DNA from: a virus
Taxonomy: Duplodnaviria > Heunggongvirae > Uroviricota > Caudoviricetes
DNA length: 11,052 nt
IMG/VR virus record: IMGVR_UViG_2667528155_000009
Strand: one strand, 5' to 3'
How positions within the stretch are numbered: position 1 is the first letter of the stretch; every line of letters starts with the position of its first letter. Below the pieces are notes generated by a model. That model saw only the letters and a program-made list of their open reading frames with translations, was not told the DNA's origin and searched no databases. A program made the position numbers and the translations under genes. This document shows, piece by piece, positions 58 to 11,052 of this stretch.

Positions 58-86
58 NATNAGNTCACTGNGNCANANANACTTNN

Positions 87-879
87 TCCTGCAAAAGAAA
101 GTATCGCGTGTGTCATACTTCATGGCAAATCCAAAACCGACTTTTATGATGGATAACGTATGTATACTAAATGCAACATATGAAATGCAGCCAATAAGAA
201 ATAATGGGACGAAAACTGACATTAAATAGTTATTATCATCATCAGTTGGCGTTACTTTCCTTTTCTTTACTTTTGAGGGCATCAATATTAAACAAATAAT
301 GCAAACAAGGTAAATGATGCAATACAATATAAAAATAAAAAGTAATGCTACAACTGCCGTCATGAGTTTATTGAATGTAGCATCAAATGGAATGTCAAAC
401 AAATTGGAAATTAGCGAGCGTGCAATATAATATGAAATTAATGATACAATTACCCACACATATTTAATTCCCAGGTTAATTTTTATGGCTATGTTTTTTT
501 CTTCATTATCGAACGATTTTATGTGAGATGATATTGTGTATGTAATACACAATATCGTCACAAAAGCCAATGTATATGGAATGATGGTATTTATATAACC
601 AATAACGTTAAAGGAAACAATTGTTAATAAAAACAGAAATACCGACAACAGTGCGGCATCTTGCGTTTTTTTATAATTTTTTCGAAGGCGAACGGCCTGT
701 TGACTGGATGACTTTTTATTCCAATTATTTTGTACGATTAATCCGCTGAGAATAATCATACCAAACCAAATAAGAATGGGGTATACAGGATCACTCTGAG
801 GTATGATGACGAGCACTGCCATAAAAAACAATAAACTGTGAACAATCCCGAGGTGTAAGGAAGAGTATATACTTTTCAT
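87..879 (-). CDS. AT-rich polytopic membrane protein of unknown function, at least 265 aa, C-terminal end lost in the N junction; moron-like cargo gene
   Basis: ATG at complement 877-879 with AAGG about 7 nt upstream and an in-frame upstream stop at 907-909. I scanned the frame by hand and found no stop down to the N's. Translation MKSIYSSLHLGIVHSLLFFMAVLVII... contains about 7 hydrophobic helix-length segments with K/R-rich loops. Not in the supplied ORF track because no stop codon is reached. Confidence 0.5.
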
Positions 880-990
880 CGATGACCTTTTTAATAATGG
901 GTTATTCTATTGGAATTAGAAAAACCACCAGCAGGCCATTACTGTCAAGCCCGGACGCTGTCTGTTTTATCCGTAGCACACGTACATAAA

Positions 991-1016
991 CGCGCCATCC
1001 GAACCACGATGGCGCG
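991..1016 (-). terminator. Candidate intrinsic terminator for the minus-strand early operon
   Basis: Perfect 9-bp GC-rich stem CGCGCCATC/GATGGCGCG with an 8-nt loop; on the minus-strand transcript it is followed by UUUAUGU. Sits 11 nt downstream of the stop of the 56-aa gene. Confidence 0.4.
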
Positions 1017-1026
1017 ACAGTACATC

Positions 1027-1197
1027 TTACAGTTGGTCAGACTTTCCTTCAGGGCGTATCAGCTCGTCCCGTGATTCAGGCGTTATTACAATCTGATGAC
1101 TCAGCAATGGCACGACCACGAACTCACCAGAACTGAGTACGTATACAAGATATCTGCCAGGAACTTTCAACATTCTCAACAGTTCATCTGTATTCAT
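1027..1197 (-). CDS. Hypothetical small protein (56 aa, MNTDELLRMLKVPGRY...)
   Basis: ATG at complement 1195-1197 preceded by GGAG with a 7-nt spacer. The supplied ORF extends to a TTG at 1260, but that longer form has no comparable RBS. Confidence 0.45.
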   Translation of the reverse strand: MNTDELLRMLKVPGRYLVYVLSSGEFVVVPLLSHQIVITPESRDELIRPEGKSDQL

Positions 1198-1323
1198 ATT
1201 TTTGCTCCGTTGGTTAACAGATTCCCTTTCGGGAGCATTCCCTTTCATCCCTGTGCACAATCTTTTTAAAACAGTGCCGGTACGCGCATACAGGTTTGTT
1301 AGAATGTCTGTTAATAGAGCAAA

Positions 1324-1530
1324 TCAGATATCACTCTCCCCAAGGCTCCTGCATTCAAAGTTCTCCAGTTTCACATGTTCACCGGCAGTACGGCCCGCCT
1401 CTTTAGGCTTATAAAAACGCATTTCGCACTGTTTCTGGGTCAGTCTGGTTTCGGAGTAAAATGACCAGGCCACAGGCGGATTGCCTGCTTTATGGATAGT
1501 TGCTGTAATTTTGTATTTTTTCCCTTTCAT
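1324..1530 (-). CDS. Hypothetical small protein (68 aa)
   Basis: Open frame filling the gap between flanking minus-strand genes; weak RBS (AGTAAGT); conserved element B lies 35-80 nt upstream. Uncertain. Confidence 0.25.
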   Translation of the reverse strand: MKGKKYKITATIHKAGNPPVAWSFYSETRLTQKQCEMRFYKPKEAGRTAGEHVKLENFECRSLGESDI

Positions 1531-1560
1531 ACTTACTGCCGAAAAATGTGTTGATTATTT

Positions 1561-1607
1561 ACACAGATTCGTATCACAAGCAGCCAGGAGTATCCAAGCA
1601 GGATATG
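1561..1607. repeat. Conserved intergenic element, copy B (ACACAG..ATTCGTATCACA..GCAGGATATG)
   Basis: Shares ACACAG, ATTCGTATCACA and GCAGGATATG blocks in the same order with copy A at 6661-6709; the copies differ by indels. Confidence 0.6.
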
Positions 1608-1645
1608 AAGGTAACCCAGTATGTTACCTTCACTGTCTGATATCA

Positions 1646-2386
1646 TCATTCGGTACTAAGCCCCTGCCACAACGCCCTGTTACCAGGTTTATGCACTTGC
1701 CGGGAAATCTCACGGCACTTTTTCAGACGTTTCAGTTTTGCTTCCGTCCTGCGAATTTCAGCGCTGATCGCCCGTGGTGTAGGGATGACAACGTCGTCGT
1801 GCCGCCGTTCTGTGAATGACGGTATCGACTGAATAAGGTCTGCAACGTTATCTGTTGAGGCTTCAGCAGCAGTTACTGATGCCGCTAACTTTATTGCTTC
1901 AGGTTGCGGCGCAGGATTATCGTCGCGCCCCATGGCTGAACAGGCTTTCTGTTTCTCCGGTAAACCATCATCAGGCAGACTGTAACGAAACTTGCCATCA
2001 TGATTAATCCGCAAAAGACGCCCCTTTCCCGTAGCCATCGCCAGCGTGGAGGCAACCTTCCTGGCTGTTGTGCTGAAGCGCCTGGACAGTTCATCCGCCG
2101 TCTGTGGGCCGTGTTTTCGGATAGCGTCTGTCAGCTGCTTCTCATCGATTTTCATAACCGTTTCCACTGGTGTTACAGGGTTCACTATTTTTTCTTTGGC
2201 AACGTCAGTCAGTTCCTTTTCCGGTCCGGACAGAGACCAGTAGCCGTTCAGGAATATCACCCTGCCTGAGTCTTCCTGCTCACGCAGCATTTCCAGAACA
2301 TCTTTTGTCTCGATGAGCAGGCGTGCTGCGACCTCGCGAGCAGTGGCTTTTCCCATCGCTTTCAGTGCATCAGTCACTGTTTCCAT
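1646..2386 (-). CDS. Hypothetical phage protein with two tandem winged-helix-like segments (246 aa)
   Basis: Start moved from the ORF-track TTG/ATG at 2461 to the ATG at complement 2384-2386 (METVTDAL...), which has AGGAGA 8 nt upstream and no longer overlaps the DnaC-like gene. Two similar segments (ATAREVAARLL...GRV and QTADELSRRF...GRLLRINHDGKF) look like wHTH DNA-binding domains; this is inference from sequence pattern only. Confidence 0.6.
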   Translation of the reverse strand: METVTDALKAMGKATAREVAARLLIETKDVLEMLREQEDSGRVIFLNGYWSLSGPEKELTDVAKEKIVNPVTPVETVMKIDEKQLTDAIRKHGPQTADELSRRFSTTARKVASTLAMATGKGRLLRINHDGKFRYSLPDDGLPEKQKACSAMGRDDNPAPQPEAIKLAASVTAAEASTDNVADLIQSIPSFTERRHDDVVIPTPRAISAEIRRTEAKLKRLKKCREISRQVHKPGNRALWQGLSTE

Positions 2387-2409
2387 TGACAATTTCTCCT
2401 GTGATTCAG

Positions 2410-3150
2410 TCAGGGCCGGTTGACGTTTTTTCGCCAGCTTTCCCAGCCAAAATTTACCCATCGGCCACCGTTCATGGACATTCTGTCCATCACCCGCTGA
2501 CCTGCCAGCTTAGTCAGTGCATCATGGTTCAGGTTGGTCAGCATTCCGACGCTGCGCAGGGATGCGGTCCGGCGATCAACAATCTGGTGCAGGATGACCT
2601 GCTCGTTGCGTGTCTCACGCTGCACACCAACCTCATCAAGGATCAGCAGGTCCACTCCGCACAGCTCCTTCAAAAATTTTTCACCCGAATTTCCATCATC
2701 GTACCCGGCATGAAGCGCACTCATCACGTCGGCGACGGTGATAACAATCACACTGCGTCCGGCGTTCATCAGGCGGTTACCTATGGCGGCGGCCAGATGA
2801 TTTTTGCCGGTACCAGGCTTACCGCTGAACACAAAATTTGTACAACCGGTATCCAGTTCAGCAGCTATGGATTTGGCCTGGCTGAGCGCATGCTTCTGGC
2901 CGTCATTCTGCACCCGGTAATTCTTGAACGAGCATCTGCGATGCAGTGGCTGAATACCGGCCCGACCGAAGATTTTTTCGGCCCTGGTCTGGCGGTTAAG
3001 TCGGTCAATTTCCTCGCAGCGTCTGCGCCCTTCGGCTAGCTGCCATTCCCGCCACTCCCCCGGCGTCCGGAACGGTGCGGAACTGTTGGCCGACCGTGGC
3101 GCCAGTTTCCTGATGCGGGCCAGAATCCCGGTATCTGCGATGTTTCTCAT
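2410..3150 (-). CDS. DnaC-like replicative helicase loader (IstB-like AAA+ ATPase)
   Basis: Walker A GKPGTGKNHLAAAIG, Walker B DLLILDEVG, and downstream QIVDRR...GMLTNLN...LAGQRVMDRM closely parallel E. coli DnaC as I recall it. ATG at complement 3148-3150 with GGGGGTG 7 nt upstream; sits 6 nt downstream of the O-like gene stop. Confidence 0.9.
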   Translation of the reverse strand: MRNIADTGILARIRKLAPRSANSSAPFRTPGEWREWQLAEGRRRCEEIDRLNRQTRAEKIFGRAGIQPLHRRCSFKNYRVQNDGQKHALSQAKSIAAELDTGCTNFVFSGKPGTGKNHLAAAIGNRLMNAGRSVIVITVADVMSALHAGYDDGNSGEKFLKELCGVDLLILDEVGVQRETRNEQVILHQIVDRRTASLRSVGMLTNLNHDALTKLAGQRVMDRMSMNGGRWVNFGWESWRKNVNRP

Positions 3151-3156
3151 GGCTTG

Positions 3157-4074
3157 TCACCCCCTGAAACCCGGTGGAATGGTTGTGTCCGGTGGCGAAA
3201 TATCCTGAATCCTGGTCGGGCTGTCGCGGCCACGATTGCCTCCCCGGTCCTGGTCTTTTGCCAGCCAGCCGGTGATAAATTTCCTGATGCCTCGGGCGGT
3301 TTTTCGTCGTCGTCGTTCGCTGAGCAGCCATCCGCGCTGATTACGCAGTGCCTGCCGGACGTCGACCGCCGGATACAGCGTCTCAAACTCGACAACCATC
3401 GATTCGGTCACGGAAAATTCAGAACCGTCGTTGAGCGGAAGCCGAATAAACTCAGGGTCATCAGGCGGTGTTGATGGCACACCAGCGCTCAGAGGCCGAC
3501 GCTCAGGTCCGACATGGGCTGGTCCGGTACCATCGGGCAAACTCGCACCCTGTGACCCGAAATTTTCATCCAGTTGCGTGGGGCTGATTTTTTCAGCTCC
3601 GCGCAAGAGGTTTTGATCTTTTAGATCTGTTTCTTTATCTTTATCTGGATCTTTATTAGTTGCCTTTGTGTTGGGCTCCTGTTCAAACACAGAACCAACA
3701 CCTGTTGAACATGTGTTATTTTCGCTGGCAGATTGTGCTTCCTTCCTGTTCCTTCTTGACTGAACAGATGCTTTTCCTGCTGCAGACTTTTTCGCTAAGG
3801 TTTCCCTGACCGAATGAAGATCATCTTCAATACGCTTGTGAACCCACTCCGTGCCGTTATCAGTAAAAAATTCTCTCAACGACTCTTCTACGGCTCCCCA
3901 ACGCTCACTGCTAACCCGGGCAATCTTTGCCAGCCTGTTTTTCGGTATAGCCCTTCCGGTCTGCCAGTAATTGAACATCAGCAGTAAATAGGCCCCATGC
4001 TCCTCGGTTGAAAGATGCATTGTGTCAGCCAAGTAATCAGCGATATAAAGCTGCATGTATGGAAGTGCCGCCAT
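3157..4074 (-). CDS. DUF1376/YdaU-like phage replication protein with a long low-complexity linker and a C-terminal domain
   Basis: N-terminus MAALPYMQLYIADYLADTMHLSTEEHGAYLLLMFNYWQTG matches the YdaU/DUF1376 pattern from memory; position immediately upstream of the DnaC-like gene is typical of an O-like initiator. GAGG 4 nt upstream of the ATG. Confidence 0.7.
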   Translation of the reverse strand: MAALPYMQLYIADYLADTMHLSTEEHGAYLLLMFNYWQTGRAIPKNRLAKIARVSSERWGAVEESLREFFTDNGTEWVHKRIEDDLHSVRETLAKKSAAGKASVQSRRNRKEAQSASENNTCSTGVGSVFEQEPNTKATNKDPDKDKETDLKDQNLLRGAEKISPTQLDENFGSQGASLPDGTGPAHVGPERRPLSAGVPSTPPDDPEFIRLPLNDGSEFSVTESMVVEFETLYPAVDVRQALRNQRGWLLSERRRRKTARGIRKFITGWLAKDQDRGGNRGRDSPTRIQDISPPDTTIPPGFRG

Positions 4075-4124
4075 AACGCCTCGCTACGCTCTTTTCCGTT
4101 CGGTCTGAATACAAAAATTAATAC

Positions 4125-4141
4125 TCACTGGTCATGTCTCT
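4125..4141 (-). repeat. Boundary motif copy 2 (minus-strand reading AGAGACATGACCAGTGA)
   Basis: Identical 17-mer to 4714-4730; one mismatch to the plus-strand copy at 7842-7859. Confidence 0.7.
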
Positions 4142-4152
4142 CTGTTTGGTGC

Positions 4153-4212
4153 CGAACCTCCTGCTGGTGCTAGCCTGCTGATTCCCCAACCAACAGAACC
4201 ACAGGAGGTTCG
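4153..4212 (+). promoter_or_regulatory. Long-range stem sequestering the ribosome-binding site of the 70-aa gene
   Basis: CGAACCTCCTG at 4153-4163 is the perfect reverse complement of CAGGAGGTTCG at 4202-4212, which contains the GGAGG Shine-Dalgarno 6 nt before the ATG at 4215. Pairing can extend to within 2 nt of the start codon. Confidence 0.4.
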
Positions 4213-4214
4213 AC

Positions 4215-4427
4215 ATGTCAGATACAAAACTTAAAAATGGATTAACGCCTGAACAAATGGCACACGATATCGCTATGGTGCTCATCGGGAACCCATCCCA
4301 TGAATGGCTTTCGGATAATGCGACCAAAACTCGTAGCACTGAATTAGCAATGAGCGCTGTAGCAGAAGAAGTCATGAACATGGAAAAACATCTTGCTGCA
4401 GCTCTTCATCAGTACACGGAGAACTAA
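4215..4427 (+). CDS. Hypothetical small protein (70 aa), encoded antisense to the surrounding early operon
   Basis: Strong RBS (GGAGG, 6-nt spacer), ATG start, intrinsic terminator immediately downstream, and protein-like composition. The overlapping minus-strand ORF 4118-4381 has no RBS and an odd composition. Confidence 0.6.
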   Translation: MSDTKLKNGLTPEQMAHDIAMVLIGNPSHEWLSDNATKTRSTELAMSAVAEEVMNMEKHLAAALHQYTEN

Positions 4428-4438
4428 TCCGCATCAAA

Positions 4439-4463
4439 GGTCGCTGAGTTCGCGACCTTTTTT
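4439..4463 (+). terminator. Intrinsic terminator downstream of the 70-aa gene
   Basis: Stem GGTCGC/GCGACC with a 6-7 nt loop, followed by TTTTTT at 4458-4463. Confidence 0.5.
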
Positions 4464-4684
4464 CAGTCCACTCCAGTAGGCATCCCCAACCATTTTTTTA
4501 TATCGCTATAACTCAGCGTTATGGGCTGATTTTTGCCGGACTCTTCAACCGGTATGGTATGTTCCTCTTCAAATTTCTTTTCGAAGGTACGCATGTGCTC
4601 ACGCCAGGCATTTCGATCTTCGATCGCTTCTTCCCTCCGGTTCAGTCTGGCGTAATACCGTTCCTGCTCAGTCAACGTTTTCAT
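4463..4684 (-). CDS. Hypothetical small protein (73 aa, MKTLTEQERYYARLNRRE...)
   Basis: ATG at complement 4682-4684 with AGGAG and a 5-nt spacer; charged helical composition. The ORF-track extension to 4717 overlaps the upstream gene and lacks an RBS. Confidence 0.5.
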   Translation of the reverse strand: MKTLTEQERYYARLNRREEAIEDRNAWREHMRTFEKKFEEEHTIPVEESGKNQPITLSYSDIKKWLGMPTGVD

Positions 4685-4700
4685 TACTTCTCCTGCATGG

Positions 4701-5204
4701 TTACAACAGATGGTCACTGGTCATGTCTCTGATACTGCTGGCGGTAACTGCTTCGTAGCGTCTGTATTGCTTGTATGGCTTCATCACACTCCCGTTCAAA
4801 ATCCGTAACAGGCGCACCAAGAAGTACCGCATTTGCCACTGCGGTTTTTTTAAAAACTGTGTAAGCAGATACTCGATGCTATGCCCTGCCGTGACCTGCT
4901 TATGCAGCTCCGGCGCGTGTATCCGGATTGCTTCAAGAACTGCGGGGATTAGCGCTGAAAACTTTTCGCGGTGCTCTGTCGTTTCGAGTTTTCGCCATCG
5001 CTGAAAAATGTTTATACGATTCCGGCGCCATGCTTCGTAATCCACCGTTCCGTCATCACGTTCTATACGGTGGACAGCAATATCTGGTCTCACTTGCTGT
5101 TCCAGAAAGGCGCGGGTGATCAACTGTGTTGCACTTTCCTGACTCATTGCGGGTGTAGCCAGCCAGGATGACAGTGCTTTGTTGGCATCCTCAGGGGTGA
5201 TCAT
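4701..5204 (-). CDS. YdaT-like protein (167 aa), occupying the cII-equivalent position
   Basis: Immediately downstream of the Cro-like gene; segments LITRAFLEQ and SALIPAVLEAI resemble Rac YdaT as I recall it. GAGGTG 7 nt upstream of the ATG; the start overlaps the end of the Cro-like gene (translational coupling). Confidence 0.55.
   Translation of the reverse strand: MITPEDANKALSSWLATPAMSQESATQLITRAFLEQQVRPDIAVHRIERDDGTVDYEAWRRNRINIFQRWRKLETTEHREKFSALIPAVLEAIRIHAPELHKQVTAGHSIEYLLTQFLKKPQWQMRYFLVRLLRILNGSVMKPYKQYRRYEAVTASSIRDMTSDHLL
4714..4730 (-). repeat. Boundary motif copy 1 (encodes the YdaT-like C-terminus RDMTSDHLL)
   Basis: Plus-strand TCACTGGTCATGTCTCT; identical 17-mer at 4125-4141. 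Confidence 0.7.
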
Positions 5205-5466
5205 CGTTGTTCACCTCTCTCGCATCCTTTAGTGGTAGATTTTGATGGCTAGGCAAAGCATCCGTTGGATTAGGGTAAAGAACTGAGTCGAGCTGATGCG
5301 GTGTAACTGCATACCCTACGGCCTCACAAAAAGGAATAATTCGTCGCGGTGGGAATTTTCCTGTTGTAACCCATAGACTTACGTTTTGCTGACTAGTTTT
5401 AAGACGTCGGGCGATCTCGGTCTGATTAGTGATGCCGAATAGTCGGCTCCTGGTTTTAAATTCCAT
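5191..5466 (-). CDS. Cro-like / YdaS-family HTH regulator (91 aa from the ATG at 5466)
   Basis: HTH segment ITNQTEIARRLKTSQQNVSLWV; C-terminal IIPFCEAVGYAVTPHQL resembles the YdaS pattern. GGAGG 4 nt upstream of the ATG at complement 5464-5466; the ORF-track start at 5484 is a GTG. Divergent from the repressor gene. Confidence 0.7.
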   Translation of the reverse strand: MEFKTRSRLFGITNQTEIARRLKTSQQNVSLWVTTGKFPPRRIIPFCEAVGYAVTPHQLDSVLYPNPTDALPSHQNLPLKDAREVNNDDHP

Positions 5467-5484
5467 ATATCCTCCAAATGTCAC

Positions 5485-5565
5485 ACTTGTATAAATACAG
5501 CATGAACTTGTATTTTACAAATTTAAATTTGTGTGACGCTAACAAAATTTACTTGTAAAATATGA
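5485..5565. promoter_or_regulatory. Immunity switch region: three operator-like dyads with divergent PR-like and PRM-like promoters
   Basis: Dyads ACTTGTATAAATACA (5485-5499), ACTTGTATTTTACAA (5506-5520) and ACTTGTAAAATATGA (5551-5565), core TTGTA-N3-TACAA. Minus-strand promoter TTGTAA (5515-5520) N17 TATTTA (5492-5497) faces the Cro-like gene. Plus-strand promoter TGTGAC (5532-5537) N18 TAAAAT (5556-5561) faces the repressor. Confidence 0.5.
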
Positions 5566-5568
5566 GGT

Positions 5569-6003
5569 ATGAAAAAAAACAACGAATCAGCTCAATACGA
5601 GACTTCAGCCAGAAGGATCAAACAGGTCCTGTATGAATTAGGCTGGAACCAAAGTCGCCTGGCTAAAGAAATTGGGGTTTCAGCTCAGGCGGTACAACAA
5701 TGGGCAAAAGGTACTTCTCGACCGAATGGCCCTAATCTAACTCGACTTTCTGAAGTCACAAGCAAACCTGAAGCATGGTTTTTCAGTGATGTCAGCGGGT
5801 TATCTGAGAGTCATGCAGTACATTTACCAGAAAGTAATGGTTCAGACTTTCTCCCGCTTAGCGATGAAGAGATCAGACTGCTAACTGTCTTCAGGAAATT
5901 TCCTTCTGTAGAGAGTAAAAACATGCTGTTAGCGTTTGAGATGAGACTTCAGGAGATAAAAGAATACTATTCCAAATACGCTAATCCCAATAAAAACCGA
6001 TAG
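5569..6003 (+). CDS. DicA/RacR-like prophage repressor (HTH_XRE, 144 aa, no S24 peptidase domain)
   Basis: HTH NQSRLAKEIGVSAQAVQQWAKG; C-terminal LSDEEIRLLTVFRKFPSVESKNMLLAFEMRLQEIKEY parallels DicA as I recall it. Divergent from the Cro-like gene across the operator region. Confidence 0.8.
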   Translation: MKKNNESAQYETSARRIKQVLYELGWNQSRLAKEIGVSAQAVQQWAKGTSRPNGPNLTRLSEVTSKPEAWFFSDVSGLSESHAVHLPESNGSDFLPLSDEEIRLLTVFRKFPSVESKNMLLAFEMRLQEIKEYYSKYANPNKNR

Positions 6004-6029
6004 TCTCCTTCTTTCCTCCCCCAACAATC

Positions 6030-6056
6030 ACAAGCCTGCTTGAAATGCAGGCTTGT
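6030..6056 (+). other. Perfect 10-bp hairpin just after the repressor stop (ACAAGCCTGC-ttgaaat-GCAGGCTTGT), no U-tract
   Basis: Direct reading; shares its GCCTGC/GCAGGC stem core with hairpins at 7401-7415 and 7768-7785. Confidence 0.5.
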
Positions 6057-6128
6057 TACACCTCGCATAATAAAACACTTAAATTTCATACAATTAAAAA
6101 TTTTTAGTGATTTTCTCACTTTAAACAC

Positions 6129-6157
6129 TTGTATTTATCAAATCCATTTTGTAGATT
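6129..6157 (+). promoter_or_regulatory. PL-like promoter with overlapping operator-like site
   Basis: TTGTAT (6129-6134) N17 TAGATT (6152-6157); the -35 is embedded in AACACTTGTATTTATCAA, which repeats the ACTTGTA operator core. A second operator-like copy, ACACTTAAATTTCA, lies near 6073-6090. Confidence 0.35.
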
Positions 6158-6239
6158 GATTGTACAAATCCTCTAGCAACACATGCGCGACAGGTAAACG
6201 TTCCGCCGACGGGCGTAAAACAAAGATGAGGACGACAGA

Positions 6240-6428
6240 GTGGACAAGACTGAACTGAAACACATTATCGCCCTGCTCCTGGAAGATGCAAAACGTCTTC
6301 AGCAGGTTGAACCAAATGCAGGCACTGAGGCCCGCATATGGTTGGCTAATAAAACACTTAATTCATTCAGAGAGTTAAGCGGTTTTGCAAGAGGGTCAGG
6401 TATCTCTACCGAACACCAACTTTCTTAG
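6240..6428 (+). CDS. Hypothetical small protein (62 aa, GTG start)
   Basis: GAGG 8 nt upstream of the GTG; first ORF downstream of the PL-like promoter. Overlaps the convergent minus-strand zinc-ribbon ORF by 23 nt. Uncertain. Confidence 0.3.
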   Translation: MDKTELKHIIALLLEDAKRLQQVEPNAGTEARIWLANKTLNSFRELSGFARGSGISTEHQLS

Positions 6429-6594
6429 CTAGCGCCTCCATAATAATAGAATGTCGTTCGCTAAGAATGCCGATTGCCGCCCCGCAAAGTGCACACTGAA
6501 CGAAGTGAATAATGTGACTGCAATTTTTCACTGAGGAATTGGTTTTTAACTCAAAAGAAGTTGATGGGCATTTTGGACAGGTTGTTACAGCCAT
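6406..6594 (-). CDS. Small zinc-ribbon-like protein (62 aa; CPKC ... CALC)
   Basis: Very good RBS (GGAGGG, 6-nt spacer, ATG at complement 6592-6594); Cys pairs CxxC and CxxC about 25 residues apart; conserved element A lies upstream on the minus strand. Confidence 0.45.
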   Translation of the reverse strand: MAVTTCPKCPSTSFELKTNSSVKNCSHIIHFVQCALCGAAIGILSERHSIIMEALAKKVGVR

Positions 6595-6660
6595 ATTTTA
6601 CCCTCCACGGGGTCGATGTTGGTGGAGTTCCCGACGGACGAGGTCGGGAATGTGCGCCGG

Positions 6661-6709
6661 ACACAGGTATAAATCCGGCATACGAAATTCGTATCACATG
6701 CAGGATATG
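6661..6709. repeat. Conserved intergenic element, copy A; contains the perfect 15-bp palindrome ATACGAAATTCGTAT (6680-6694)
   Basis: Same ordered blocks as copy B at 1561-1607. The palindrome is formed only in copy A. Confidence 0.6.
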
Positions 6710-6728
6710 TATTTAAACACGAGCACAT

Positions 6729-6803
6729 AACCGAAAACGCACTACGCAGAACCTTCCTTGTCGGGTCTGTCGTTAAATTTACTGCGATAGTGCGTTTCCG
6801 GTT
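6729..6803. repeat. Long imperfect inverted repeat (about 21-bp arms, about 32-nt spacer)
   Basis: AACCGAAAACGCACTACGCAG (6729-6749) against the reverse complement of CTGCGATAGTGCGTTTCCGGTT (6782-6803); one mismatch and one bulge. Confidence 0.55.
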
Positions 6804-6824
6804 ATGAGTGAAAATCATAACAGT

Positions 6825-6887
6825 GCTGTGTGTAGTCTTTGACGGTATCCGTTAACAAAGTTTTCCTGGCTGATACCGTCCTTTTTC
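6825..6887 (+). ncRNA. Candidate DicF-family sRNA with intrinsic terminator
   Basis: TTTGACGGTATCCGTT is close to the DicF core TTTGGCGGTATCAGTT as I recall it (14/16). Stem GACGGTATC (6841-6849) / GATACCGTC (6872-6880) is followed by CTTTTTC. Lies in the PL-like operon downstream of a DicA-like repressor, the position where dicF sits in Qin. Confidence 0.4.
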
Positions 6888-7071
6888 AGAATGAATTTTA
6901 TAGTGTGGTGAATGCGGCTCAGCGCACGTGACACAGTTAAAAACATGTCAGTCCTTCATCTGTTGATGGGTGGGAATGTTCGTCGGCAGTAATGGTTAGC
7001 TGTTTACTGTCACCGGGAGGCACCCGGCACCACACTCCAAAATTCATTGTGTTACCAGAATGGAGACAACT

Positions 7072-7362
7072 ATGCCAGTTACACCTGAAATAAAACAAAA
7101 CTCAGACTGGATGCGGCGCAACAAATCTGAACAAACCGCCCCTGCCTGTAAGCCTGGTATTATTCAGAAAATATTAAGTACGCTGAACCAGAAAGGTGAC
7201 CCCACCCTTATTCCTTGCGCTTATTGTGGCAAAGCCATCAACAAAAGTGAAATCGTGGAGCATGAACTTATTTATATAAACGGAAGTCAGCTCGCAAGAA
7301 AAACGAATCTATATTGCAGTAAACGATGTGCCGAATATGACCAGATGGCACATGAATCTTAA
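7072..7362 (+). CDS. Zinc-ribbon-like hypothetical protein (96 aa; CAYCGK ... CSKRC)
   Basis: GGAG 5 nt upstream of the second ATG at 7072; the ORF-track start at 7060 lacks an RBS. Confidence 0.55.
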   Translation: MPVTPEIKQNSDWMRRNKSEQTAPACKPGIIQKILSTLNQKGDPTLIPCAYCGKAINKSEIVEHELIYINGSQLARKTNLYCSKRCAEYDQMAHES

Positions 7363-7400
7363 TAGCTGAAAGTTTAACACTGCATTAACCCTGAAACTAT

Positions 7401-7415
7401 GCCTGCAATGGCAGG
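7401..7415 (+). other. Intercistronic hairpin GCCTGC-aatg-GCAGG
   Basis: Same stem core as the hairpins at 6030-6056 and 7768-7785; lies between the 96-aa and 110-aa genes. Confidence 0.4.
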
Positions 7416-7445
7416 ATATCACTCACCCTGAAAAGAGAATATAAA

Positions 7446-7778
7446 ATGAGAAAGACACCGAGCGAATCAGTAATTAATGAACTCAACAAACGAGCAAAGG
7501 AAATTCTTGAACTGTGTGAGAAAAACGATATTCCGGTTGTTTTTTGTTACTCATTCGAATTAAGCCGGAATGAAAATGGATATTTAAACAACAAATCCAT
7601 TACAGCTTATATCAATAAAGAGAAAGGAGCATGGGATTCAACAATAGCCGCAGCCAGCATGATCCTGCGGATGAAAGAGGTTCCTGAGATAGCTATCCAT
7701 GCAATGGCTGAAATGGCTGCGATTTGTGACATCACACGGACTGCATCCGGTACTTCAGATGAAAAAAGCCTGCACTAA
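7446..7778 (+). CDS. Hypothetical protein (110 aa)
   Basis: ATG with an A/G-rich upstream region (AAGAGA); protein-like composition; in the PL-like operon. Confidence 0.5.
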   Translation: MRKTPSESVINELNKRAKEILELCEKNDIPVVFCYSFELSRNENGYLNNKSITAYINKEKGAWDSTIAAASMILRMKEVPEIAIHAMAEMAAICDITRTASGTSDEKSLH

Positions 7779-7790
7779 GGCAGGCATTTT
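7768..7790 (+). terminator. Candidate intrinsic terminator overlapping the 110-aa gene stop, upstream of the RecE-like gene
   Basis: Stem GCCTGC (7768-7773) / GCAGGC (7780-7785) with loop ACTAAG, then ATTTT; a second T-run follows at 7796-7800. Confidence 0.4.
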
Positions 7791-7841
7791 CCCGGTTTTT
7801 ACATCCCGGCGATGCTGAGGTGGGCGACCAAACCCACCGAC

Positions 7842-7859
7842 AGAGACATGACCAATGAG
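7842..7859 (+). repeat. Boundary motif copy 3 (AGAGACATGACCAATGAG), 56 nt upstream of the RecE-like start
   Basis: One mismatch to the minus-strand copies at 4125-4141 and 4714-4730; shares the upstream ACCAAAC with copy 2. Confidence 0.7.
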
Positions 7860-7914
7860 CACCAGAGGTGATCACCGATCGCCTCATTCTAAACAGAAGT
7901 GAGGTTAAAAAACA

Positions 7915-10900
7915 ATGAGTGATAAGAAAGAAGATTTCGCGCTGTACTGCCCTGTTAAAAATGAAGAGGCCAGGAAACGACTTGGAATAAAAGCAGGCTT
8001 TTTCTGGGCAACTGCAAAAAAATTATCTGTGGCTGTTTCCCGCTGTATTGCTGCTATGGACGATAAGGGGTATGACGAGGATGACTTTAAAAAACCTGTT
8101 CGCGTCAATTACCCCGTCGTTAACGACCTGCCTCCTGAAGGCGTGTTTGATACTGAATTCTGCAACCGTTACGAAAAAGGCGGTCAGGGTGGTATCACAA
8201 TGGTACTTATCCCCGGCGCTGTTCCCGCCGATCCAATGCACGGCGAAGTCGGCAGGGATATTACTGGCAGCGGCAACGCAGACGCAGACGCAGACGCAGG
8301 CACAGACGCAGATAATGCTACGGACAATACCGAAAGTACGCTCCTCCCCGCTTACGCTTATAACGTCAACGGCGAACTGATGTCGGAAGTGGAAAAGGAA
8401 ATGTCGCAGCCTGTTTCAGGACTAAGTCTGCCACTTCGTTTCCTGGCGCAATTTAATAACGACTGTCCACAACATCAGGTCACACCAGAGCGTTTACGGG
8501 AGTTAAACCTTACAGAGCAGGATCCCGACAGTCGTACCGGAACTATTTTACTCGCCATCCAGAACAGAAAGGAACAGCTCGAAAAACTGGACACAAAAAA
8601 CCTGCATCCTTTGGCGACGTACATTGAAAAAGTATTTCCCTGCGGAAAACGACCACAACTCAATGATGTCATTAATTTTATCGATGCCGTACTTAATACA
8701 GACTATGTCGATCGCGGACTGCTCGTTAAGGAATGGTGCGAAGGTCGTCGAGCCGCGTGCGTAGAGCATGTAACAGCACCAGAAACCAGGCGTGATAATA
8801 CTGTGTCAGCGCAGACGGAAACGAAGACTACTGTCACTGAACGTCCGCGTCGTAGCGAAAAAACAACGCACCGGACGATTAATTATGAAATTGGCTGTGG
8901 CTTATATGACGGCGAGCTGGATCTTCATAACCTGAGGGAACCGCTGGATTTTGCGAAACGCATTATGGCGAAAGACCGGGAAGACTGGAAAGTATGGTCA
9001 GACACAATCAACTGCATCCCTGGCATCCTGAATTATGACCGCCAGACCATTATCGAGATGGTACGAAAAGCCCCCACCCCGACTTATCACAGTGCTGCAC
9101 TGCGCCGCGAGTGGTGTGATTCTTATCTGCGAGCCTGGGGACGGCTCGATCCCGACTGGAGCCAGAGCGCCGCTGTCAAAACAGCAGAGTCACATGAAGA
9201 TGTCTGTGCTGATATCAGGAAGGCCGGAAAGCGCCTGCGTGAAATTGAATCAGGAGTTGGGATCAATGAAGAAAAACAGACGACACAGGGAGAACTGGCA
9301 GATGAACCGTCAGCGCCTGAATCAGTGGAACCGGCTTCAGCTGAACATCAGCAGAATACGCAGCCGCTGGATGCTGAGGCATCTGTAAACACCACTAAAA
9401 CGGAATTCGATGTATTTGCTCTAATGCAGAACTCATCTGTTTATGGCAGCAAAAACACACAGGAGACGACCAGCAATGTGCAGGTTCAGGACGCTGAAAA
9501 GGATGAAAAACAGGCTGGTACTGAAGTTCAGTCAGGCGAAAGCAGTCTGGGAACTGGTGAAGAGTCAGATACCAGACAGCAAGCCGATGTAAACCAGAAT
9601 ACGGATTCTGTCGCCCAAAATAGCGATTCTGTAAACCAAACTGAACCAGTTTTGGCACAAACCGAGCCAGAAGTGCAATCTGACGAACCGGCTGTTGTTT
9701 ACCCCGCTTACTTCGAACCAGGCCGCTATGAGGGTCTGCCGAACGAGGTTTATCACGCAGCCAACGGTATCAGCTCGACAATGGTAAAAGATGCGCGGGT
9801 GAGCCTGATGTACTTCAATGCGCGCCACGTAGAGAAAACCATTATCAAAGAACGCTCTCCTGTACTGGATATCGGTAACCTGGTGCATGCACTGGCGTTG
9901 CAGCCAGATCAACTCGATGAAGAATTCAGCATTGAACCCGTAATTCCGGAAGGTGCATTTACCACCACGGCAACGATCCGCGCGTTTATTGATGAGCACA
10001 ACGCCAGCCTGACAGCGATGCTGTCAGCCGACGACATCAAAGCACTGTTAGAAGAGTACAACGCCACCCTTCCTGCTCAGGTTCAGTTAGGTGGTTCCGT
10101 GGAGGAAACTGGCCAGAGCTATATGTCGCTGCCAGAAGAGTTCCAGCGTCTCGAAGCGGACAAGAAGCAGACCGCAGCGGCAATGAAAGCCTGCATCAAG
10201 GAATACAACACCACACTGCCTGCACAAGTGAAAATCAGCGGTAGCCGTGATGCGTTACTCGAGCAGTTAGCAATCATCAATCCTGACCTGGTGGCGCAGG
10301 AAGCGCAGAAGCCCGCGCAGTTGAAAGTGTCCGGCACCAAAGCGGATCTGATTCAGGCCGTGAAGTCTGTTAATCCTGATGCCATCTTCGCCGACGAACT
10401 GCTGGATGCGTGGCGCGAAAATACGCAAGGGAAAGTGCTGGTCACCCGCCAGCAACTGAGCACTGCACTGAGCATTCAGAAAGCCCTGCTCGAGCACCCT
10501 ACAGCGGGCAAGCTACTGACACACCCGAGCCGCGCCGTTGAGGTGAGCTACTTCGGTTTTGACGACGAAACCGGTCTGGAAGTCCGCGTTCGTCCCGACC
10601 TTGAGATCGATCTTGACGGGGTGCGCATCGGCGCCGACCTGAAAACCATCAGCATGTGGAACATTAAACAGGAAGGTCTGCGCGCCAAACTGCACCGCGA
10701 AATCATCGACCGTGACTACCACCTGAGTGCTGCCATGTATTGCGAGACCGCAGCGCTTGACCAGTTCTTCTGGATTTTCGTCAACAAAGACGAGAACTAC
10801 CACTGGATCGCCATCATCGAGGCATCCGCCGAACTTCTGGAACTGGGCATGCTGGAGTACCGCAAGGCAATGCGCGCCATCGCTACCGGCTTTGACACTG

Positions 10901-10977
10901 GCGAGTGGCCAGCGCCGATCACCTCCGGTAACTCCGATGAAATAGCCGACTACACCGACGAACTGAACGATTTCGAC
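7915..10977 (+). CDS. recE: RecE-like exodeoxyribonuclease VIII, 1021 codons with no stop; 3' end replaced by the chimeric junction
   Basis: C-terminal PD-(D/E)XK-like block RVRPDLEIDLDGVRIGADLKTIS; position at the distal end of the PL-like operon of a Rac-like immunity region; GAGG 10 nt upstream of the ATG. The reading frame runs into N's and 16S sequence after codon 1021 (DFD). Family call is from recall, not a search. Confidence 0.7.
8275..8310 (+). repeat. In-frame tandem hexanucleotide repeat (GACGCA-like, 6 units) encoding a D/A-rich low-complexity tract
   Basis: AACGCA GACGCA GACGCA GACGCA GGCACA GACGCA, translating to NADADADAGTDA. Confidence 0.7.
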
Positions 10978-11052
10978 NCNTGCCATCNGANGNGCCCAGA
11001 TGGGATTAGCTAGTAGGTGGGGTAACGGCTCACCTAGGCGACGATCCCTAGC
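10978..11052 (+). rRNA. 16S rRNA gene fragment (about 75 nt, enterobacterial, corresponding to roughly positions 220-290 of E. coli 16S); not native to this locus
   Basis: TGCCATCNGANGNGCCCAGATGGGATTAGCTAGTAGGTGGGGTAACGGCTCACCTAGGCGACGATCCCTAGC matches the conserved 16S region as I recall it. Abrupt junction with N's at 10978, 10980, 10988, 10991 and 10993, inside what would otherwise be the RecE-like coding frame. Confidence 0.8.

Follow-up and report, generated by a model that had tools for sequence, protein, structure and literature searches.

An 11,052-nucleotide stretch of viral DNA (Caudoviricetes; IMG/VR record IMGVR_UViG_2667528155_000009; hereafter the window) carries a recE-family gene whose nuclease domain is interrupted by a 162-residue array of repeats, and sequence comparison supports well the descent of this array from a single SAP motif (helix, extended linker, helix) that is found in the same loop of many relatives. 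Judged by its sequence, the gene product is a Gifsy-type RecE (exonuclease VIII family), a recombination exonuclease of prophages. It is predicted to be an exonuclease that acts 5'-3' on double-stranded DNA (dsDNA), encoded in a Rac-like prophage's early-left operon, with a RecT-family annealase as its partner immediately downstream. The family assignment, the SAP-derived array and a role of the array in capturing DNA ends, taken jointly, make up the explanation that we regard as probable. The protein is of a known kind, and what is uncharacterised in it is the SAP-derived array, nested and variable in copy number, that occupies the loop proposed to capture DNA; the length of the gene, a variable Asp-Ala (DA) tract and the missing recT gene, which had also been remarked on in the original prediction made from the letters of the window, are ordinary.

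The repeat array in the nuclease domain of RecE

Of 8000 candidates scored in a homology search 7967 were significant, the best 120 being mostly Salmonella prophage proteins. The homologues carry NCBI names such as 'RecE family exodeoxyribonuclease', and full-length ones are found in Gifsy-1, Gifsy-2, mEp237, HK225, SPN3UB and several Klebsiella prophages. Besides the N-terminal family listed below, Pfam detected DUF3799 (a RecE-type PD-(D/E)XK family) with 45 bits. The protein consists of a RecE N-terminal region (aa 1 to ~450), a linker (~450-594) and a PD-(D/E)XK nuclease domain of the RecE fold at the C-terminus (595 to ~1003), arranged in the gene as follows.

7915..10977 (+): authentic part of the recE-family gene, codons 1-1020 plus the opening bases of codon 1021
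8074..8496 (+): Exonuc_VIII region (PF06630, RecE N-terminal family), aa 54-194, Pfam score 41-43 bits (cutoff 25)
9697..9942 (+): N-terminal part of the nuclease domain, aa 595-676, aligned to residues 5-99 of the 3H4R chain, with invariant Y613, G654 and H658
9943..10428 (+): SAP-derived repeat array inside the nuclease domain, aa 677-838, delimited by repeat statistics, loop length classes, MAFFT, Pfam, hhalign, a Protein Data Bank (PDB) profile match and an AlphaFold2 (AF2) model
10429..10923 (+): C-terminal portion of the nuclease domain (aa 839-1003), carrying E876, D895, D908 and K910 (D...D-x-K active site) as well as Y935
10924..10977 (+): beginning of the conserved C-terminal tail (SGNSDEIADYTDELNDFD...), which in the true protein goes on as TRRLEALRTAQGE

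In an alignment of 99 sequences H658, E876, D895 and D908 were invariant and K910 nearly so. The active-site counterparts in K-12 RecE are H652, D748, D759 and K761, and the H...D...D-x-K active site is intact.

The original prediction had described the open reading frame (ORF) as unusually long. The product does exceed K-12 RecE in length (1034 aa compared with 866 aa), but this length is typical of its clade (985-1055 aa; 940-1079 aa among the best 120 of the 7967 homologues). The alignment to RecE homologues that had been proposed as a check mapped the additional residues to the nuclease domain and the tail. By this comparison almost all of the ~170 residues gained over K-12 RecE lie in the nuclease-loop array (162 aa) and in a longer C-terminal tail; the N-terminal region and linker together count 594 aa here and ~595 aa in K-12.

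The repeats had been thought to lie upstream of the nuclease domain, and instead they are within it, as indicated by the alignment to the K-12 RecE structure (PDB 3H4R), by the loop length classes and by MAFFT. The phmmer alignment to 3H4R came in two blocks (query 611-706 to chain residues 5-99, and query 838-1003 to 91-252), and because it splits around aa 677-838 the array is an insertion within the domain. It takes the place of K-12 RecE residues 665-698, a loop of ~20-30 aa. The layout of the array is A (outer helix 1, aa 685-698), B (703-747), C (751-799) and D' (outer helix 2, 800-835). The protein repeats, encoded by nt 10021-10419, far exceed chance: in local alignments B against C scored 73 (shuffle mean 20 +/- 4), C against D' 63 (20 +/- 4) and A against C 45 (19 +/- 4), scores that not one of 2000 shuffles attained. 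In their DNA the units show little similarity, only a 20-nt match of 85% being detectable, which indicates that the units are old and maintained.

In the AF2 model the array is ordered, with block means of the predicted local distance difference test (pLDDT) of 85-98, and the units have the form helix, ~10-residue linker, helix. The model was built from the 99-sequence alignment and replaced an earlier run on 30 close homologues whose core was poor (pLDDT 63). The predicted helix pairs, in fragment numbering, are H115-128 with H139-147, H164-177 with H188-198, and H95-108 with H219-229; the turn before helix 2 is SGSR in C', SGTK in D' and, in degenerate form, GGSV in B'. The modelled units show the SAP layout: two helices joined by an extended linker, helix 2 being preceded by a conserved Gly and a turn that is polar or basic.

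The suggestion that the repeats are related to SAP or helix-extension-helix (HeH) motifs was borne out by Pfam matches in relatives, by hhalign and by a profile match in the PDB; the opposite possibility, that the repeats bear no similarity to DNA-binding motifs, was checked, and similarity to SAP was found. Many relatives of the one-unit class have a canonical SAP motif. One of them, with its unit in the same loop (P0237), scored 33.4 bits on the Pfam SAP profile, for which the cutoff is 23.9. This profile matched at E<=0.01 in 13 of 35 loop segments (best 1e-12), and others matched SAP_new25, FANC_SAP or LEM. In the MAFFT alignment helix 1 of the one-unit relatives fell on unit A (TTATIRAFIDEHNA) and helix 2 on unit D' (QLKVSGTKADLIQAVKSVNPDAIFADELL), with B and C between them. 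In hhalign, A+D' matched the one-unit class with 99.2% probability and C matched it with 96.3%, and B matched C with 90%; a profile of the loop run against PDB sequences had the SAP domain of MKL1 (2KVU, E 8e-4) as its best match. These results indicate, at the level of sequence, that the ancestral SAP motif has been split, its helix 1 being unit A and its helix 2 unit D', with units C and B nested between. Unit C is well preserved, and unit B has a degenerate, acidic second helix.

The number of units varies among relatives, even close ones. Cluster representatives were searched exhaustively with HMMER, which yielded 2893 relatives; of the 150 that were listed, 89 allowed both flanks of the loop to be placed. 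In these 89 representatives the loop measured 15-35, 39-73, 93-113, 131-142, 161-171, 187 or 213-215 aa; the array of the window belongs to the 161-171-aa class, most members of which have exactly 162. The relatives carry 0, 1, 2, 3 or 5 units at this loop: P0149 has A+D' only, P0147 one unit fewer than the window protein with an apparent fusion of B and C, and P0121 (85% identical) two more. The multi-unit array is also present in standalone nucleases, and copy number varies regardless of the N-terminal domain.

In another clade (P0178, P0191, P0206, P0183) the same loop holds three to eight tandem copies of an unrelated repeat of ~23 aa, KPTDKQIxxYExWxxAGKPEPYxG. Since a different clade fills the same site with an unrelated repeat, the loop tolerates expansions. 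The short loop of the K-12 type (NRRTNAGKEEEKAF) resembles a single degenerate copy of that repeat.

Possible roles of the array

The SAP family is best known for DNA binding. In K-12 RecE the loop of residues 665-698 juts out from the DNA channel's rim, is largely disordered in the structure, and has been proposed to capture dsDNA (review PMC11611040). We suggest that in the RecE tetramer the four SAP-derived arrays would form a crown at the channel mouth, on the DNA-entry face, and that this crown may capture or hold the dsDNA end, with units C and A/D' engaging DNA through the K-x-S-G-[ST]-[KR] turn. The array would then be expected to bind DNA and may influence processivity.

Several observations weigh against this reading. 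Against the Pfam SAP profile the window sequence itself reached 16.6 bits, below the cutoff of 23.9 (E 0.006), and matched over the second half of the motif only (profile positions 19-33, aa 803-817), so that by its own score it is outside PF02037 and its assignment to SAP goes through intermediate sequences. The match of unit B to the one-unit class was weak (35% in hhalign), and searches with the whole model against structures matched no SAP structure. The array has a net charge of -9 and a pI of 4.6 (unit B -8, C +1, D' 0), unlike typical basic SAP domains, which argues against simple electrostatic binding of DNA, at least by unit B. Finally, the placement of the array at the channel mouth comes from the review of the K-12 structure and not from a tetramer model of the window protein.

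The array could instead be a functionally neutral expansion of an insertion-tolerant surface loop, produced by duplication and unequal recombination. The 0 to 5 SAP-like units of relatives would fit such a history, as would the unrelated 23-aa repeat found elsewhere at this loop, which marks the site as generally permissive, the fact that K-12 RecE works without any unit, and the degenerate and acidic character of unit B. Neutral expansion is harder to reconcile with a length of 162 aa that stays constant across representatives with 49% to ~86% identity in the nuclease domain, with the order predicted by AF2, with the conservation of the N-x-[TS]-L-P, S-G-[ST]-[KR] and N-P-D positions in distant members, and with the low DNA-level similarity of units that appear old and maintained. 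We therefore consider it unlikely. It is also conceivable, but in our judgement quite unlikely, that the array is a protein-interaction or regulatory module and does not bind DNA, serving as a dock for the annealase or a host factor, a channel gate, or a decoy shaped by defence. The net negative charge, above all that of unit B, would suit such a module, and the type of nuclease domain changes with the downstream annealase: in the Salmonella locus L003 the domain is divergent, and a 403-aa gene stands in place of RecT. A retron defence system that senses K-12 RecE is counteracted by the neighbouring racC (bioRxiv 10.1101/2020.06.22.160242), and arms-race pressure on RecE is plausible on that account. 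Set against a protein module are the site, which is the loop proposed to capture dsDNA, and a copy number that varies in standalone and long RecE forms alike, whatever the N-terminal domain. The ancestral motif also belongs to a family known chiefly for binding DNA.

A bolder extension of the preferred reading, in which the arrays engage DNA ends, would make the array an evolvable crown of variable copy number that tunes this engagement, with acidic unit B as a DNA mimic or gate and with the variation driven by conflict with the host (retrons, RecBCD). Separately, the antisense U-run of the conserved hairpin described below and the unusually conserved 5' leader of recE might mark an antisense or leader RNA element controlling recE. 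Both proposals are speculative and seem to us distinctly improbable.

RecE and RecT are a workhorse of recombineering, and to our knowledge only K-12 Rac RecE has been studied structurally. The Gifsy-like RecE is the commonest natural type, found in thousands of prophages of Salmonella and E. coli, and in it the rim loop is replaced by an ordered array of SAP-derived units. Relatives with 0, 1, 2, 3 or 5 units constitute a natural series for studying how end capture and processivity are set, and the variation could guide the choice or engineering of RecE variants. A literature search of incomplete coverage found no description of a SAP-derived insertion in the nuclease loop, which is weak evidence of novelty.

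Gene boundaries, linker repeats and the upstream hairpin

The window ends within the gene, and its boundaries and the features around its start are as follows.

7446..7778 (+): gene of 110 aa in the position of racC of K-12 Rac, not a RacC homologue
7768..7785 (no strand): G+C-rich hairpin, stem 7768-7773 / 7780-7785, 6 bp (5 G-C), 6-nt loop, -10.3 kcal/mol
7901..7904 (+): Shine-Dalgarno GAGG, 10 nt 5' of the ATG, within a 20-nt block identical to K-12 recE
7915..11013 (+): recE ORF as listed, 1032 codons, of which only 7915-10977 is authentic
8276..8312 (+): in-frame (GACGCA)n tract, a length-polymorphic variable-number tandem repeat in a variable acidic linker (Tandem Repeats Finder: period 6, 6.2 copies, 87% matches, score 60)
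9262..9696 (+): low-complexity linker, acidic and rich in Q/T/S, covering aa 450-594 (net charge -24)
10978..11052 (no strand): foreign 3' sequence outside the gene, an N-riddled join at 10978-10993 followed by a 16S rRNA fragment

The reading frame is real: the 1020 readable codons are identical to the Escherichia coli protein P0272, a full-length protein that gives the complete product as 1034 aa, ending in ...DELNDFDTRRLEALRTAQGE. Positions 65-10977 of the window match without interruption a locus of an E. coli draft genome (L001; 99.4% nt identity). The 16S rRNA fragment comprises the last 51 bases (11002-11052; Rfam SSU model positions 237-287, E 2e-7). At the other end positions 1-64 are likewise unrelated to the prophage, with an N-peppered join at 58-86, and the ends of the window look like an artificial or mis-assembled chimera. 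These chimeric, N-containing ends are what could suggest that the additional length is an artefact, owed to a wrongly called start, to faulty assembly or to a chimeric join inside the gene. This explanation was checked and ruled out, and its probability is negligible: identical or nearly identical full-length proteins occur on independent contigs (P0272, n=14; P0271, n=48; P0273, n=10), the match to L001 is unbroken, and the start is conserved. Since the 20 nt containing the ATG (TGAGGTTAAAAAACAATGAG) match the K-12 recE start region exactly, the start codon is correctly called.

In some E. coli isolates, long contigs carry split or truncated alleles of the P0001 cluster (P0274, P0275, P0279, P0281, P0284). 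One is a 484-aa N-terminal fragment and the others are C-terminal ORFs of 569-595 aa that start in the linker, two of them with a frameshifted tail; they recall the active N-terminally truncated forms of K-12 RecE.

The (GACGCA)n tract encodes N-ADADAD-AGTDAD (aa 121-133) within an acidic stretch that differs greatly between homologues. It had been predicted to vary in length by slippage, and comparison across closely related isolates agrees: within a 90% cluster, P0282 (1032 aa, n=1 contig), P0272 (1034 aa, n=14) and P0273 (1036 aa, n=10) are identical except for having two, three and four Ala-Asp dipeptides, and the window has one GACGCA unit more than L001 (a 6-nt indel). The tract thus shows genuine length polymorphism of the slippage type. 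Phase variation through the tract was considered and rejected, since the 6-nt unit is in frame and cannot switch the gene on or off, and the alleles with two, three and four units all give full-length protein. Other short in-frame repeats are present in the acidic linker of aa 450-594: a 21-nt repeat at 9588-9640 (2.5 copies) encodes VNQNTDS / VAQNSDS, and at 9440/9441 L001 and P0001 have an 18-nt tandem duplication (SSVYGD-SSAYGS) that is single-copy in the window. Like the (GACGCA)n tract they are slippage-prone linker sequence and alter only linker length.

The hairpin is flanked by A6 (7762-7767) and by AUUUU (7786-7790), and its loop contains the stop codon of the upstream 110-aa ORF; the end at 7790 given earlier takes in the short U-run. 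It had been proposed as a terminator that keeps recE silent in the lysogen. A sense-strand intrinsic terminator of this kind would be consistent with the 6-bp G+C-rich stem followed by AUUUU, with UUUUU at the same place in L003, and with a hairpin at the equivalent position after racC in K-12 Rac. However, a scan for consensus terminators accepted the site only on the antisense (-) strand, where the run is U6, and the sense AUUUU failed the scan. The stem and the upstream A-run are kept in L003 and in L004, a Gifsy-type locus (both Salmonella), and, altered, in K-12 Rac, and of these sites the window and L003 alone have the sense-strand U-run, which is absent from L004 and K-12 Rac (sites compared: window 7762-7790; L003 3848-3876; L004 ~3847-3878; K-12 locus L002 8459-8481). 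Because this U-run is not conserved though the stem is, the silencing idea is unsupported. The regional fold energy is also unremarkable (z = -1.6), and in lambdoid phages a repressor acting at the promoter silences the early-left genes, the silence of recET in Rac lysogens being ordinarily ascribed to repression of the early promoter. Sense-strand termination is thus a doubtful explanation, and the hairpin looks like an antisense-strand or bidirectional terminator, or a hairpin that protects a 3' end. A scan of both strands at 7000-8300 found no sigma-70-like promoter, so nothing supports an antisense promoter feeding the hairpin. In the Gifsy-type copy the stem is extended to 8 bp.

Downstream of the hairpin, ~75 nt 5' of the recE ATG are strongly conserved among the window, two Salmonella prophages and K-12 Rac (window 7840-7934 against L002 8385-8460 (-)), although the window and K-12 proteins are only ~28% identical in their N-terminal part. 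This region may be a conserved leader or a translation-control element.

Prophage context and comparison with known systems

The absence of recT from the window had been attributed to the chimeric 3' end, and recovery of the true 3' end from L001 confirmed this as the sole cause: a 349-aa RecT-family gene (PF03837) begins 3 nt past the recE stop, as expected. Beyond it L001 has DUF977, Ead/Ea22, an excisionase-like gene and an integrase, and then ttcA and dbpA; upstream of recE are YdaE, an HTH repressor, and YdaT-, YdaU- and YdaV-like genes. Because the gene order and the integration site (ttcA) match those of the K-12 Rac prophage, the window is, from its sequence, a Rac-type prophage with a different recET module. 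BLASTP gave no alignment of the 110-aa protein to K-12 RacC, which removes it as a RacC homologue, and showed no similarity of the 349-aa partner to K-12 RecT. A full-length match to the Rfam STnc100 small RNA lies within the early-left region at 6880-7084 (+), upstream of the YdaE-like gene; it is sub-threshold (39.5 bits compared with a gathering score of 47, E 7.6e-6).

In 5426 complete E. coli genomes blastn found no match to window 7440-7935 (the 110-aa gene and leader), and of the recE allele only the C-terminal 1.5 kb matched, with <=89% identity, in 868 genomes. The recET allele is, by these searches, rare in E. coli and closer to the alleles of Salmonella prophages. In the Salmonella relative L003 the N-terminal part of RecE is 95% identical and the nuclease domain only 51% identical, and a 403-aa protein without a Pfam hit (L003 7108-8319) takes the place of RecT. 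The nuclease domain and the annealase seem to be exchanged together.

Among known systems, K-12 Rac RecE (PDB 3H4R) shares with the window protein the prophage type, the ttcA integration site, the gene order, the N-terminal Pfam family, the H/D/D-x-K residues and a nearly identical translation start region. The window protein differs in being only ~28% identical N-terminally and ~25% in the nuclease domain, in its length (1034 compared with 866 aa) with a longer C-terminal tail, and in having the 162-aa SAP-derived array in place of the rim loop 665-698. The gene upstream of it is not racC, and its RecT partner is without BLASTP similarity to that of K-12.

The 'exodeoxyribonuclease VIII' proteins of the Salmonella prophages Gifsy-1/2 and of coliphage mEp237 are closer (51-57% identity over 98% of the query), as is that of coliphage HK225 (61% over 84%); in mEp237 and HK225 the C-terminal domain retains 82-83% nt identity across the array region, and the Gifsy-type locus L004 has the upstream hairpin and the gene order of the window. 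Compared with these relatives the N-terminal and middle modules of the window protein are a different mosaic; P0002 has a K-12-like middle module.

Standalone DUF3799 or RecE-like PD-(D/E)XK phage exonucleases (~260-430 aa, e.g. PDB 3L0A) are without the ~590-aa N-terminal region and linker. A multi-unit array is nevertheless present in P0216, P0251 and P0261, one SAP unit in P0237 and P0255, and none in P0250. With the SAP domain (PF02037; MKL1 2KVU, SIZ1 2RNN) the repeats share the succession of helix, extended linker and helix and the G-[ST]-[KR] turn before helix 2. They differ from it in that the motif is embedded in a loop of a nuclease domain and is not terminal, that the unit is split with two units nested in it, that the linkers are lengthened (N-x-T-L-P-x-x-[VL]-K), and that the array is net acidic and sub-threshold in Pfam.

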